Part shown: positions 23,847-30,872 of the stretch, piece by piece
Position numbering within the stretch: the first letter of the stretch is position 1
Layout of the letters: every line of letters starts with the position of its first letter
Origin: a virus
Lineage: Duplodnaviria > Caudoviricetes
DNA: 64,000 bases
Reading direction: 5' to 3' (one strand)
Virus record (IMG/VR): IMGVR_UViG_3300012096_000007
Span: 850 to 64,849 of that record
Position numbers and translations under genes: made by a program
The notes under the pieces: model-generated
Told to the model about the DNA's origin: nothing
What the model saw: the letters and a program-made list of their open reading frames with translations, nothing else
Database searches by the model: none

Positions 23847-24155
23847 ATGACAGACATAAGAGAATACACCATAATTTTGGATGATGTTATGCAAAAGTGG
23901 CTTGGAGAATTTAAGACCCTTGAACCATTGGATTATCGAATGCTGGCCATACTGCTTGATGACCCCATGAGTGTAAAGGAAGAAGGCATACGATTCGTGG
24001 TTGACATCAACAAGCCTGAAATTCAACGAAAACTGGACATGCTGAATGGACCCTACTTTAACACCATCATGAAAATGCTAGAACTAAGGATGTACAATGA
24101 AGACAGTAAGCGTAACAGCAAGGGAATTGAAAATAGCTGCCGAACATTGGTATGA
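23847..24155 (+). CDS. GPH-motif family protein
   Basis: KLDMLNGPYFNTIMKM. Confidence 0.65.
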   Translation: MTDIREYTIILDDVMQKWLGEFKTLEPLDYRMLAILLDDPMSVKEEGIRFVVDINKPEIQRKLDMLNGPYFNTIMKMLELRMYNEDSKRNSKGIENSCRTLV

Positions 24156-24366
24156 GCTTCACGGGTTAAAATCTATCTCAATGTGGCATTACCTGGAATA
24201 CCTTGGTGAAAAAGATCAAGCTGAAAAACTAAAAACAGCTATGTGGGGAAGAGCTGCATGGGACATTGAAGTATCTGAAGAGTCAGCCCGCAAAATCAAA
24301 GCGCTCAATGGGCCACACTACAAAACCCTGTTGGCCATCTATAAAGCCCAGAACATGATTAAGTAA
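24097..24366 (+). CDS. GPH-motif family protein
   Basis: KIKALNGPHYKTLLAIY. Confidence 0.65.
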   Translation: MKTVSVTARELKIAAEHWYELHGLKSISMWHYLEYLGEKDQAEKLKTAMWGRAAWDIEVSEESARKIKALNGPHYKTLLAIYKAQNMIK

Positions 24367-24371
24367 GCAAA

Positions 24372-24701
24372 ATGAAACAACCTAAGCAAGACCCCGGTGT
24401 AGAAATAGACAGTAGCAAATACTTCAGGGCACAATCACATTGGGTTGCCTTTTGGAGACAACAAGACCTAAACATACCAAGCTTTGGCAATTTCCTTGGC
24501 TTGACAAAAGGTGTCGTCATTCACGGACGAAAACATACAATGATGCTCAGAGCCAGCGCTGTAAGAAAAGTAGAAAAACTAGCAAGCCCATACTGGTACG
24601 CCATCCTCAAAGCCTATCAAGTCAGGCACTCCCGCACCAAACAAGAACGTGAATTCGATGACAATGACAGAAAAACAAATGACATTCATAGACGCGTTTG
24701 A
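24372..24701 (+). CDS. GPH-motif family protein
   Basis: KVEKLASPYWYAILKAY. Confidence 0.65.
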   Translation: MKQPKQDPGVEIDSSKYFRAQSHWVAFWRQQDLNIPSFGNFLGLTKGVVIHGRKHTMMLRASAVRKVEKLASPYWYAILKAYQVRHSRTKQEREFDDNDRKTNDIHRRV

Positions 24702-24909
24702 GTTCATTGATGCTGTGACAGCTTGGTACACCTACAAGCATGATGACCCCAGCAAACGCTTCATGGATTATCTAGGCATTCACCACTATAGCACCTACGC
24801 CGATAGATTCCTGATGCCGGAACACGCTGCCCATAAACTCAGGATGCTTCTATCCCCTCACGCACAAACTATCATCAGGATGTATTATGCAAAACAGACC
24901 AAAACCTGA
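24658..24909 (+). CDS. GPH-motif family protein
   Basis: KLRMLLSPHAQTIIRMY. Confidence 0.65.
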   Translation: MTMTEKQMTFIDAFEFIDAVTAWYTYKHDDPSKRFMDYLGIHHYSTYADRFLMPEHAAHKLRMLLSPHAQTIIRMYYAKQTKT

Positions 24910-25165
24910 CATTCATATTCCCAACAACAAAATGCAGCAGTCGTATTACAACTGGTGCCAAATCCCCATTGTTAACAAAAAGGAGGACTGGGCGATGTAT
25001 TGGGATTATGTTGGAGCCTACAAACAATCAAATGAAGGTAGATGGATACTGACCCAAGATGGCGCACGCTGAGTTGACTACCTGCTAGGCCCGCATGCTG
25101 AAACCATGGTGATGGCATGGTTCAAAACCAATAAACCGAAAATCAAACGATTCAAATTCAAATGA
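24887..25165 (+). pseudogene. GPH-motif family gene interrupted by an in-frame TGA at 25070-25072
   Basis: Frame continues after the stop as VDYLLGPHAETMVMAW. Confidence 0.6.
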
Positions 25166-25593
25166 GAGATATCATCAACATCAAAAATCTATGCATCAGC
25201 TGGCGCAGCTATGCCAGCCCCAGCTTTTTCTACTATCACCGCTATCATATTCATCACCAGAATGGAGACGATTACTTCCTGTTCATAGGCCCGTTACAGT
25301 TCAGATGGTGGAAAATGAAAGACTACAGCCGCATGATCAGCCGCCTAGATTATTTCAAGGCGATGGAAACCTATAACAAGATGGCTGAGAAGCTAAGGCT
25401 GGAAGCACCTGACTTCAGATTGTTCGTATCCCCTGTGCCCAAGGTAGACCGCCAACCCATACCGTTCAGGGCAATCTCAGAATCAGAACTGATTGAACTG
25501 ACCCCAGAAGGATACCAGCATTACAAGATGCTATCCAACCAACATGCCACCACCTTGTTAGCAGTATGGATCATCAAACATGCAAATCACTAG
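25162..25593 (+). CDS. GPH-motif family protein (divergent)
   Basis: HYKMLSNQHATTLLAVW. Confidence 0.55.
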   Translation: MRDIINIKNLCISWRSYASPSFFYYHRYHIHHQNGDDYFLFIGPLQFRWWKMKDYSRMISRLDYFKAMETYNKMAEKLRLEAPDFRLFVSPVPKVDRQPIPFRAISESELIELTPEGYQHYKMLSNQHATTLLAVWIIKHANH

Positions 25594-28647: not shown

Positions 28648-29124
28648 ATGAGCTATGTACGCTGGTCCCCATCATCTGACGTCTACTGCTATGAACACAT
28701 TGATGGCTACTACATCACCCATGTCACGGATGGACGAAACATCAAAGATAGCTCACGAGAAGACTTGATATTGACCTTGCAAATCTTGGCTGCATCTGGC
28801 CTCAAAATACCTGACTCCACTATTGCCTCAATTGAGGATGAAATCATGCAGGACAAACACCGGCTGTTCTACCGGGCCTATCATTATTTACGGGATCAAT
28901 ACCCTGCTTTGCATTTTCAATTGGATGGTGCATCCGTGGATGAACTTGATAGCTTGATCTGGTCTGCCTTAGGCTACCCTACCCCCTTTAAATTAAATAC
29001 CCATGATCTCACTGAATATGATTGTTCACGGTTACAATTACTATGCGGAGAGCATGGCTTGAGTTTATTCAAGATGATGCTGGCAAGGCGATCTAGTGAG
29101 AATCGTGCCTATTGGGAAAAATAA
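28648..29124 (+). CDS. GPH-motif family protein with extra N-terminal domain
   Basis: RLQLLCGEHGLSLFKMM. Confidence 0.6.
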   Translation: MSYVRWSPSSDVYCYEHIDGYYITHVTDGRNIKDSSREDLILTLQILAASGLKIPDSTIASIEDEIMQDKHRLFYRAYHYLRDQYPALHFQLDGASVDELDSLIWSALGYPTPFKLNTHDLTEYDCSRLQLLCGEHGLSLFKMMLARRSSENRAYWEK

Positions 29125-29384
29125 TGCTAGATTGGGAACTACGGATACAGGCCGGAAGTAAGCTGATTGAATGGGGCATTATCTCTCCTTCCAAGGATGA
29201 TTTTTGTAGTTTGGGAGATAGAGATGATCCGGTCTATGCGCATCTAGCTTGGTTATTGGATTACTCAGATGGGCAGCAATTCATGTTTAGCTTCCGTGAA
29301 TCTGATAGGGTAAAACTGCAATGGCTGTTGTCGCCTTATGGTTTCACCATCTACAAGATGCTGGTGTTGCGTAAAAATGTGTAG
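29112..29384 (+). CDS. GPH-motif family protein
   Basis: KLQWLLSPYGFTIYKML. Confidence 0.65.
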   Translation: MGKIMLDWELRIQAGSKLIEWGIISPSKDDFCSLGDRDDPVYAHLAWLLDYSDGQQFMFSFRESDRVKLQWLLSPYGFTIYKMLVLRKNV

Positions 29385-29601
29385 GCTCAGCATGTGTGAT
29401 TGCAGTGGTTGCCTTCAAATACGAGTCATTAAAAATCTGATGCAGGGTGGATTAGCAGTTGATGAACAACAAGCATTCAACCTATTAACGAAACTACTGC
29501 CAATCAGCATGAACATGACCGATCAATACGCACGGATGAAACTGTTGGCAGGCCCAAATAGCTATGCCATCTACAAAATGATAGAGGCGCGAAATGGATG
29601 A
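29377..29601 (+). CDS. GPH-motif family protein
   Basis: RMKLLAGPNSYAIYKMI. Confidence 0.65.
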   Translation: MCRLSMCDCSGCLQIRVIKNLMQGGLAVDEQQAFNLLTKLLPISMNMTDQYARMKLLAGPNSYAIYKMIEARNG

Positions 29602-29633
29602 ATATGTGGTAATAAGATAAAGGGAAAACCTGG

Positions 29634-30287
29634 ATGATGCATCTCACCCAATTGCTGAGCGGAGTCAAAGCTGGGGTTTGCCTGTTGCAAAACCTGCCTG
29701 ATTTTGATGCGGATCAGGTGGCGTTTTTGTTGCGACGACGGTTGGTTGCTACCAGTGGCCAGCCTTATGCCATTGCCCAGCACAAGGCTGACCCATCTGA
29801 TTGCTCGGACCGTACCGAATACTTTGATTGGCATTCAGATGGCCTGTATGTGATGCGACCACCGCATTATGTGTTGCTGCATTGCCTTGACCCCGGCGCT
29901 GGTCTGATTTCCACTGATCTATGCAGTGTCACAAAGGTTTTAAATAAGTTAAGCGAAGATAGCCTTTATACATTAGGCAAACTACGCTCACATTACATTG
30001 GACATGATGGGACCTTCAATCATCCTATCTTGAGCCTTAAGGGAATGCTATTGGCTTCACGTGGCTTTGTTGAACCTTTGCCCGGTTTATCCCTCGAAGA
30101 ACAACCTTCCATTCGTGATATTACTGCTGCATTGTCAGAGCTGTATCATCAATTGGATGCAAATGCAGTTCCATATCATTGGATGATTGGTGATACATTG
30201 ATTTTTGACCAATACAAATATCTGCATCGACGTAACAGTTCTATCATCGATAAGGATAGAAAACTGATCAGGATGTGGTTTACATGA
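29634..30287 (+). CDS. TauD/TfdA-like Fe(II)/2-oxoglutarate dioxygenase
   Basis: WHSDG (HxD), LLHC, WxxGDTLIFDQxxYLHRR, RKLIRMW. Confidence 0.75.
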   Translation: MMHLTQLLSGVKAGVCLLQNLPDFDADQVAFLLRRRLVATSGQPYAIAQHKADPSDCSDRTEYFDWHSDGLYVMRPPHYVLLHCLDPGAGLISTDLCSVTKVLNKLSEDSLYTLGKLRSHYIGHDGTFNHPILSLKGMLLASRGFVEPLPGLSLEEQPSIRDITAALSELYHQLDANAVPYHWMIGDTLIFDQYKYLHRRNSSIIDKDRKLIRMWFT

Positions 30288-30634
30288 GCACATCTTTTCA
30301 ATCAGGGAAAATAATGATGGCCCCATTTCTCAAGGAAGATTGGTTTTTGCTTGGCAGCATTGCCTACGCTGAATTAAATAGTCAACTTTGGCAATGGAAA
30401 TCCAAAGGTTTGATTGATTCCATATTGATCAACCCATACCCACAACCTTCACATCGGCACATAGCTGACATACTTGGCTATAAGAATACCAAAGATATGA
30501 CAGAAAACTGGAATGAGAAATCAACTAACACCTTGAAGTTGTTATGTGGGCCATATGGCTACACTGTTTACAAAATGCTTGTGATCAAATGGGAGGATAA
30601 AATCAATCATGATTCCGGCGAAACGAGTGATTAG
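30284..30634 (+). CDS. GPH-motif family protein
   Basis: TLKLLCGPYGYTVYKML. Confidence 0.65.
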   Translation: MSTSFQSGKIMMAPFLKEDWFLLGSIAYAELNSQLWQWKSKGLIDSILINPYPQPSHRHIADILGYKNTKDMTENWNEKSTNTLKLLCGPYGYTVYKMLVIKWEDKINHDSGETSD

Positions 30635-30872
30635 ATTTACCATGGGATGTGGCTGTGCTATTTGTCAGGCTATAGATAAAGCCTGTATTCGTTTGCTAGA
30701 AGCTGGAATCTGTTTAACAAACAAAGATGCCAAACACGCTATCAAAAATGTTATACCTTGTTCAATTAATGCTCCTCTTTCAGAAGAACAATTAAAAACT
30801 TTGTATCGCTTAGGAAGCGAACATGGCGCTACGCTGTATCGAGTTCTGTTGGCTAGAAAAGCAGCTCCATAA
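30609..30872 (+). CDS. GPH-motif family protein
   Basis: TLYRLGSEHGATLYRVL. Confidence 0.6.
   Translation: MIPAKRVIRFTMGCGCAICQAIDKACIRLLEAGICLTNKDAKHAIKNVIPCSINAPLSEEQLKTLYRLGSEHGATLYRVLLARKAAP

Follow-up and report, generated by a model that had tools for sequence, protein, structure and literature searches.

An unnamed family of small, probably helix-turn-helix-derived proteins in an uncultured soil phage

The window analyzed here, 64,000 of the 64,849 bases of IMG/VR virus record IMGVR_UViG_3300012096_000007 (positions 850 to 64,849; an uncultured Caudoviricetes record rated ~70% complete), encodes a family of small, divergent proteins that share the motif L-x-x-L-x-(G/S)-P-(H/Y/N)-x-x-T-h, in which h is hydrophobic. 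The motif occurs in 14 intact genes and in one further copy cut by an in-frame TGA, numbered here as members 1 to 15 in genome order (Table 1), which together take up 4,866 of the 64,000 bases (7.6%). Members 1 to 13 form a main array, and members 14 and 15 lie at a second site. This is a real and sizeable family without a name in any library searched, and structural modeling suggests that its fold is probably derived from the helix-turn-helix (HTH) domain. We tentatively read the proteins as small early-gene binders on a common scaffold, each paralog with its own target, that may act as regulators, host-takeover factors, or counter-defense factors; this is the reading we prefer, even though we place it somewhat short of an even chance.

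A preliminary description of this DNA had proposed an expanded family of about 15 members, and the motif is indeed present at all 15 of the places it named. Some of its gene starts needed revision: the open reading frame (ORF) beginning at 24887 stops at the TGA before reaching the motif, while 27369 is an internal ATG of the gene at 27339-27683 and 29112 is a TTG ahead of the gene at 29124-29384, both of which are members. A relaxed regular expression matched 18 six-frame ORFs, 15 of them family copies, where 50 codon shuffles averaged 1.22 and never exceeded 5, a count that is biased because the expression was fitted to the copies. A leave-one-out hidden Markov model (HMM) of the 31-column block recovered 13 of the 14 left-out copies, each at rank 14, directly after the 13 training copies, with 16.7 to 33.4 bits, and it reported no ORF from 20 shuffled windows; the motif thus stands out from shuffled controls. 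The single copy missed was that of member 6 (25312-25590, an SNQH variant), and a later HMM built without this copy and without member 9 found these two at 33.1 and 34.8 bits. Two family HMM searches found no further members in the window. One other candidate, a 200-aa protein at 26715-27317 with ALGPRHG near its N terminus, was rejected: both HMMs missed it, and the motif is not retained in its orthologue in G001, a relative whose capsid protein is 97% identical.

AlphaFold2 modeled the 84-aa domain of member 15, from an alignment of 148 sequences, at a predicted local distance difference test score (pLDDT) of 90 and a predicted template modeling score of 0.76, with helices at residues 3-15, 30-38, 47-50, 55-65, and 69-83. 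In this model the motif corresponds to a helix 4-helix 5 hairpin with a three-residue Gly-Pro-His turn, within one ~80-aa five-helix domain; the N-terminal part contributes helix 1 of that compact domain, and the helix ending in LG is its helix 2. Since the N- and C-terminal parts are predicted to form a single compact domain, the model does not bear out an earlier proposal of variable specificity domains carried on a constant helix. Conserved columns across the 148 sequences are E5 and W10 in helix 1; L34, A35, L38, and G39 in helix 2 and its turn; W48 in helix 3; T54, L61, and L64 in helix 4; G66, P67 (143 of 147), and H68 (His in 109, Tyr in 29, Asn in 10) in the Gly-Pro-His turn; and T71, I72, K74 (Lys in 108, Arg in 20), I78, and R79 in helix 5. 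The columns from G39 to W48 are poorly occupied and proline rich.

Several features that had been read from the letters of the window were confirmed. In the larger alignment, the helix end described as LG(Y/I/V/L) has Leu in 107 of 148 sequences and Gly in 113 of 142, followed by Tyr, Leu, Ile, Phe, or Val; the two members said to carry an RGxxPR segment are members 8 (RRGSKPR) and 14 (QRGSAPR); and the N-terminal parts are, as stated, nearly unalignable between members, with in-window paralogs 16.5% identical there and 24.6% identical in the C-terminal part. Some members add an N-terminal piece or a tail to the ~80-aa domain. The N-terminal extension of member 6 is conserved in its orthologues P0032 and P0033, and residues 1-32 of member 9, within its extension, weakly match phrog_13573. 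Two domains occur in one chain in 6 of 150 listed representatives, a hint that two domains are able to work side by side. A homodimer prediction from two copies scored 0.01, but it was run without controls and carries no weight for or against. Net charge ranges from -6.9 to +16.8 across the members and isoelectric point (pI) from 5.0 to 11.5; members 3, 8, and 14 are strongly basic (+9.9, +11.7, and +16.8), and 6 of the 15 copies have a pI of 5.0 to 6.4 or a net charge of zero or below.

Comparison with G001 indicates that these genes are old and maintained. Its array is syntenic with that of the window, with DNA 65 to 88% identical and pieces missing on both sides, and it holds 12 members, among them one extra that is absent from the window; members 4, 5, 8, and 11 have no clear counterpart there. 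Orthologous proteins are 47 to 78% identical between the two phages, beside the 97% of the capsid. The ratio of nonsynonymous to synonymous substitution rates (dN/dS) is 0.12 to 0.36 in 7 of 10 orthologue pairs (dS > 0.78), the other 3 being saturated, and we therefore consider the genes real and under purifying selection. For all 14 intact members the best match outside the window (42 to 200 bits) exceeds those to in-window paralogs (23 to 46 bits), which argues that the duplications are old and that each paralog is a lineage of its own. Member 1, for which 19 orthologues at 52 to 66% identity were found, illustrates the pattern: among 20 orthologues the N-terminal part is 66% and the C-terminal part 83% identical. 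Judging from these alignments, both halves are constrained, the N-terminal half in a lineage-specific way. Members are also gained and lost between close relatives.

An HMM built from the window copies and first homologues, searched against 1.84 billion representative proteins, returned 165 matches at E ≤ 0.001 (clusters at 50% identity); the 150 listed representatives are 62 to 303 aa long, mostly 77 to 120. Relatives of the phage were located through the capsid protein and through degenerate DNA patterns. Of four with 81 to 88% capsid identity, two had no match, one had 2 weak matches, and one had a single weak match; a more distant relative, G003, has a single member in its equivalent 36-kb region, of the subtype of members 8 and 14, the sole subtype found there. 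Arrays in the sampled contigs of the clade hold 2 to 12 members per stretch: 12 within 3.6 kb in L124, 8 and 4 in two stretches of one 93-kb contig (L133 and L125), 6 in L103, 5 each in L118/L120 and L127, 4 in L134, and 3 each in L128, L130, and L136. Of the 14 metagenome pattern matches, 4 are without any member. All carriers whose other ORFs are long enough to compare share genes with the window (e.g., terminase at 92%, DnaB at 73 to 78%, and a 276-aa protein at 72% identity), and the family looks confined, on these sequences, to one clade of uncultured soil phages. Two exact motif patterns, a narrow test, had 0 matches in a prokaryote genome collection.

The preliminary description did not recognize the family, and neither did the libraries. 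PHROGs matched 0 of 148 members at E ≤ 0.001 and, among the window members, none at E ≤ 0.01 apart from the weak match on the member 9 extension. In Pfam, no family reached E ≤ 0.1 on the window members; among 149 further matches the TauD part of one fusion alone reached a cutoff, five others being at chance level and below cutoffs. NCBIfam gave five single-member matches to unrelated families (E 0.012 to 0.057), PADLOC matched 0 of 14 members, and neither NCBIfam nor PADLOC matched an anti-CRISPR (Acr), anti-CRISPR-associated (Aca), or defense family model. Of 35 homologues in a collection of 5.8 billion proteins, one is named, as "hypothetical protein," and ten family clusters inspected contain metagenome proteins only, none of them named. 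In the literature, no description of such a family appeared in titles and the opening lines of abstracts, and the motif string LAGPHG matched only unrelated work.

We compared the model with all 48,161 representative chains using a structure aligner. The leading matches were the C-terminal domain of HigA2 (5j9i; Z 5.8, 64 residues aligned, 3.0 Å), the C-terminal domain of MqsA (3gn5, 3fmy; Z 5.3), RsaL (5j2y; Z 5.0), and the XRE-like protein 2ppx (Z 4.7), with weak rows for Aca7 (Z 4.2), Aca1 (Z 3.2), and Aca10 (Z 3.0). Judged by entry title, small regulators of the Cro/C1-XRE type and CUT domains make up ~30 of the 50 rows, and we take them to belong to one fold class. An independent model of member 1 (pLDDT 66) gave CUT domains (Z 5.0 and 4.9), followed by MqsA, RsaL, and HigA2. 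An XRE-like five-helix topology is likely for the modeled domain, although the Z values are low. Its size (~65 to 80 aa) and the order of its five predicted helices agree with those of XRE/Cro-C1 domains, and helix 2 ends in L-A-x-x-L-G. Unlike them, it has a long loop between helices 1 and 2 and a helix 3 confined to residues 47-50, one turn around the conserved Trp, whereas the usual XRE recognition helix (helix 3) has ~8 to 10 residues; the predicted model has no full recognition helix after the turn. Conservation in the family also peaks in the hairpin of helix 4, Gly-Pro-His, and helix 5 rather than in the HTH, and the searches gave no similarity to XRE profiles. An earlier suggestion of degenerate HTH proteins is the best description available at the level of fold, XRE/Cro-type domains leading the structure search for two models, but at low Z; the sequence and profile tests do not support it. 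Two family alignments searched against PDB sequences found unrelated chains (best E 0.94 and 0.33). In the ESM Atlas, member 8 gave no usable feature match, the Atlas's own model being poor (pLDDT 0.44), and for the domain starting at 48558 the best scores were 0.78, with the nearest named cluster, HTH cro/C1, below the bar at 0.75.

How might such proteins work? Under the reading we prefer, the hairpin of helix 4, Gly-Pro-His, and helix 5, together with helix 1 and its Trp and helix 2 (L-A-x-h-L-G), would be a scaffold held constant across paralogs, and paralog-specific surfaces on helix 1, on the loop joining helices 1 and 2, and on the segment between helices 2 and 4 would direct each old paralog to its own target. 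The proteins would be made early in infection and would act as small binders, whether as regulators, host-takeover factors, or counter-defense factors, on an XRE-like fold that may have lost its classic way of reading DNA. The N-terminal part, conserved within a lineage (66%) and not between paralogs (16.5%), speaks in favor of a variable surface on a common scaffold. A parallel exists among large eukaryotic viruses: the poxvirus Bcl-2-like proteins and the multigene families of African swine fever virus comprise many small helical paralogs that diverge in sequence yet share a fold, cluster in variable parts of the genome, and come and go between strains. The family described here resembles them in all these respects; it belongs to a phage and has another fold, and the analogy extends to genome behavior only.

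Several observations weigh against this reading. The best Z of 5.8 lies below the 7 to 8 that, by the aligner's own report, is the typical best for models without a clear match, and Foldseek searches of PDB (both models) and BFVD had no match at E ≤ 0.001, a second look at its own rows yielding one row at Z 2.1. No HTH family appeared in Pfam at E ≤ 10 in 42 members or at E ≤ 0.01 in the 149 further matches, and the same search detects the phage's own XRE gene (HTH_3, PF01381) well above its cutoff of 23 bits. In hhalign, the 148-sequence family alignment matched the phage's own XRE family with a probability of 0.3%, and the RGSxPR subtype alignment with one of 0.1%, against an XRE alignment of 7 sequences (the window XRE and 6 homologues), where a deeper profile might show more. 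The early timing is taken from gene order, the array standing ahead of the replication genes. The very basic members (+9.9, +11.7, and +16.8) fit nucleic-acid binding better than protein binding, and a structural role, such as pairing with Glu5, may account for the conserved His, Thr, Lys, and Arg, so that a common functional surface may not exist. Finally, the age of the paralogs and their retention across the clade are unlike a rapid arms-race expansion.

The alternative that survives best is that the members are DNA-binding transcription regulators, either diverged Cro/XRE repressors and activators or Aca-like autoregulators, each paralog with its own operator in a temporal program. We regard this as possible, if on the whole unlikely. 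The lead of XRE-type domains in both fold searches would suit it, as would the end of helix 2, since L-A-x-x-L-G is a pattern typical of the first HTH helix. The same can be said of the strongly basic members 3, 8, and 14; of the R-G-S-x-P-R/K segment in the subtype of members 8 and 14, which resembles the XRE helix 3-4 loop; and of an iteron-like repeat field within the array (26000-26400). However, helix 3 is four residues long in the pLDDT 90 model, HTH profiles match none of the 42 and 149 sequences, and both hhalign comparisons with XRE fail. The 6 of 15 copies that are acidic or carry no net positive charge also count against regulators, and it would be unusual to find 15 of them within ~64 kb in addition to a canonical XRE gene.

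In a variant of our preferred reading, which we consider rather unlikely, a degenerate HTH scaffold that no longer reads DNA would be kept as a repertoire of as many as 15 old paralogs, a phage counterpart of those eukaryotic-virus multigene families; their helix 1-3 surfaces would be aimed at different host or defense proteins, and the invariant Gly-Pro-His/Thr/Lys strip would dock one common partner, such as RNA polymerase, a protease, or a chaperone.

The family could also consist of antitoxin-type counter-defense decoys, XRE-fold antitoxin domains that would neutralize the toxins of host toxin-antitoxin or abortive-infection systems, with one paralog per toxin family. Although the top two fold matches, HigA2 and MqsA, are antitoxin HTH domains and the many paralogs occupy an early, variable accessory region, we think this improbable. 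The Z values are low, and toxin binding in HigA2 and MqsA falls to a part of the protein other than the HTH domain, which binds DNA. Pfam and PADLOC found nothing on the members, Pfam showed no toxin family on the neighbors scanned, and in the main array members run consecutively without toxin partner genes.

Equally doubtful to us is a helix-hairpin-helix (HhH)-like hairpin that would grip DNA or RNA backbones nonspecifically and might serve, for example, in replication, in packaging, or in protecting the genome. The HhH consensus is h-x-x-h-x-G-h-G-x-x-x-A-x-x-h-h, and L-x-x-L-x-G-P-H-x-x-T-I-x-K resembles it in its two helices, its tight three-residue turn containing glycine, and its similar hydrophobic spacing; Lys74 and Arg79 are conserved on helix 5, and one family site adjoins replication genes. 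Yet the Pfam scans gave no HhH family, the second hairpin glycine is replaced by His, Tyr, or Asn (109, 29, and 10 of 148), and several members are acidic. It is very improbable that the members are dispensable passengers, selfish or near-neutral ORFans spread by duplication and by recombination with nearby homing endonuclease genes, since despite HNH-type genes beside the array (23028-23600, absent from G001) and inside it (28081-28545, minus strand), gain and loss between close relatives, and one copy with a stop, dN/dS is 0.12 to 0.36, each paralog is closer to its orthologues in other phages than to its home paralogs, orthologue groups are 66 to 83% identical over 20 sequences, and the copies occupy so much of the window.

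Table 1. Family members and other genes of the window (positions in the window; bits for members are from the leave-one-out HMM; dN/dS is against G001).
Feature	Position	Strand	Remarks
Member 1	23847-24155	+	102 aa; pI 5.0; opens the rightward block; 24.5 bits when left out
Member 2	24097-24366	+	89 aa; 59-nt overlap with member 1, same overlap in G001; dN/dS 0.119
Member 3	24372-24701	+	109 aa; pI 10.2; best outside match L103, 67%
Member 4	24658-24909	+	83 aa
Member 5	24887-25165	+	in-frame TGA 25070-25072; ATGA overlap with next gene
Member 6	25162-25593	+	143 aa; family domain is the C-terminal ~90 aa, preceded by an N-terminal extension
Member 7	25580-25855	+	91 aa; dN/dS 0.241
Member 8	27339-27683	+	114 aa; charge +11.7; RGSKPR subtype; 33.4 bits when left out; terminator-like hairpin 3' at 27771-27799
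Member 9	28648-29124	+	158 aa; N-terminal extension and family domain
Member 10	29124-29384	+	86 aa; dN/dS 0.152
Member 11	29377-29601	+	74 aa; no counterpart in G001
Member 12	30284-30634	+	116 aa; ATGA overlap with TauD-like gene; 33.2 bits when left out; dN/dS 0.152
Member 13	30609-30872	+	87 aa
Member 14	46495-46887	+	130 aa; charge +16.8; RGSAPR subtype
Member 15	48534-48935	+	start 48534 or 48558; belongs to the largest metagenome subfamily; domain modeled at pLDDT 90
TauD/TfdA-like 2-oxoglutarate dioxygenase (non-member)	29634-30287	+	PF02668, E 1.7e-15
Canonical XRE (HTH_3) gene	48868-49065	+	overlaps the member 15 tail; 50.9 bits
Major head protein	12511-13548	-	
Portal	15904-18501	-	
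Large terminase	18502-20175	-	
DnaB-like helicase	50893		replication block
Helicase	53236		replication block
Primase	56066		replication block
Clamp	61777		replication block
Polymerase	62837		replication block

The layout of the window places the array at a junction. Head and packaging genes occupy the minus strand of bases 1-22700, and the plus strand carries nearly all genes from ~23000 onward, leading into the replication genes; the main array of 13 copies opens this plus-strand block, divergent from the packaging genes, and the layout is the same in L103. Its first part (23847-25855) comprises seven genes, including the TGA copy, many of them overlapping. After a 690-base gap bearing repeats come the 200-aa basic protein and member 8, ended by the terminator-like hairpin, and a third part (28648-30872), preceded by the minus-strand gene at 28081-28545, sets five members around the TauD-like gene. 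Genes of the TauD type also sit within the family arrays of G001 (L096) and L127 (1160-1810), and in G001 the gene is fused in frame to the member 10 orthologue, giving the 303-aa P0057. Two homing-endonuclease-like genes are found in this region: the one at the array edge (23028-23600, plus strand) is of HNH type and matches phrog_19902, and the one inside the array matches phrog_16521 and has three related copies in L133.

In the gene-free gap at 26000-26700, ATCCGTGGAAGYATC occurs four times at spacings of 61 to 74 nt and AACTCACCTGACT three times, alongside inverted repeats rich in AT; the portion at 26058-26211 is conserved in G001. The gap looks iteron-like and may be an origin or a field of operators. 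Genes of the array have weak ribosome-binding sites or none. Farther along, between 33440 and 44668, an intergenic element of ~60 nt occurs in 12 copies (e.g., 35073-35148, 36394-36468, and 44164-44239) 5' of many genes; it consists of a hairpin with a variable stem sequence, another hairpin of the form GAAGC-loop-GCTTC, a strong AACAGGAGGAG site, and an ATG. Compensatory changes affect 11 of 15 predicted pairs among the 12 copies, and the element might mark a site of processing or act as a signal for translation. A repeat scan of 22000-50000 reported no copy inside the array. Because their ribosome-binding signals contrast, the array and the 33- to 45-kb block are probably expressed differently.

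Member 5 is the copy interrupted by the TGA, which stands just ahead of the motif VDYLLGPHAETMV; the same frame is then open to 25165. Read through with X in place of the stop, the sequence aligns to the family HMM over the whole domain at 27.5 bits, and the stop falls inside helix 4. A strong AAGGAGG precedes an internal ATG at 24995. The window stretch is held by contigs of three runs labeled soil metagenome, and the TGA letters are identical in all three, so the TGA is not the slip of one assembly; two of these runs appear to be a single data set deposited twice, the source sample may be among the three, and the agreement is one of contigs only. Stop-codon recoding is not supported, as this is the single such in-frame TGA and the only tRNAs of the window are Thr(TGT) (22742-22816, minus strand) and Gln(TTG) (49867-49942, plus strand). 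Member 5 may be a pseudogene, or its stop may be read through.

The second family site lies upstream of DnaB, and the adjacency of member 15 and the XRE gene is kept in G001 and L118/L120. Two reports describe acr genes upstream of an HTH aca gene (PMC8633003, PMC9410906). The second site recalls such operons, since in the window, in G001, and in L118/L120 a canonical XRE gene directly follows one or two genes of the family; unlike them, the main array has no HTH_3 gene, and the proteins match no Acr or Aca family. Just upstream of a zinc-finger gene at 48320 and member 15 is a GC-rich region of ~520 nt (47790-48310) without a convincing ORF. A piece of DNA at 47778-48049 is 92.7% identical to G001, the best-conserved piece of that comparison, and the RNA fold of 47790-48310 has a z-score of -4.06, with 0 of 100 shuffles as stable. 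It had no Rfam match even at E ≤ 1, and we consider it, on its sequence, a candidate structured RNA.

Megablast of the array against cultured phages gave zero matches, and the nearest cultured capsid, that of a Bradyrhizobium phage, is 53% identical; complete relatives in the viral collection are 93 to 96 kb long, one with terminal repeats. No RNA data set is among the listed holders of 23800-27800. The phage also encodes a cold-shock-domain protein (PF00313; 22440-22709, minus strand) and three unusual accessory proteins: a DoxX-family membrane protein (34059-34493), a DUF2201 metallopeptidase/VWA-like protein (40950-42143), and a VWA-domain protein (58574-59197).

One unnamed domain thus fills a sizeable share of the coding capacity of this phage, and 165 clusters of dark metagenomic proteins gain a name and a confident model. 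Should the domain prove to be an HTH fold minus its reading helix, it would show clearly how a DNA-binding fold in a phage became a binding module open to diversification. And if its paralogs target host functions, the family would supply small inhibitors as a ready-made panel and would mark the accessory regions of this clade of soil phages.

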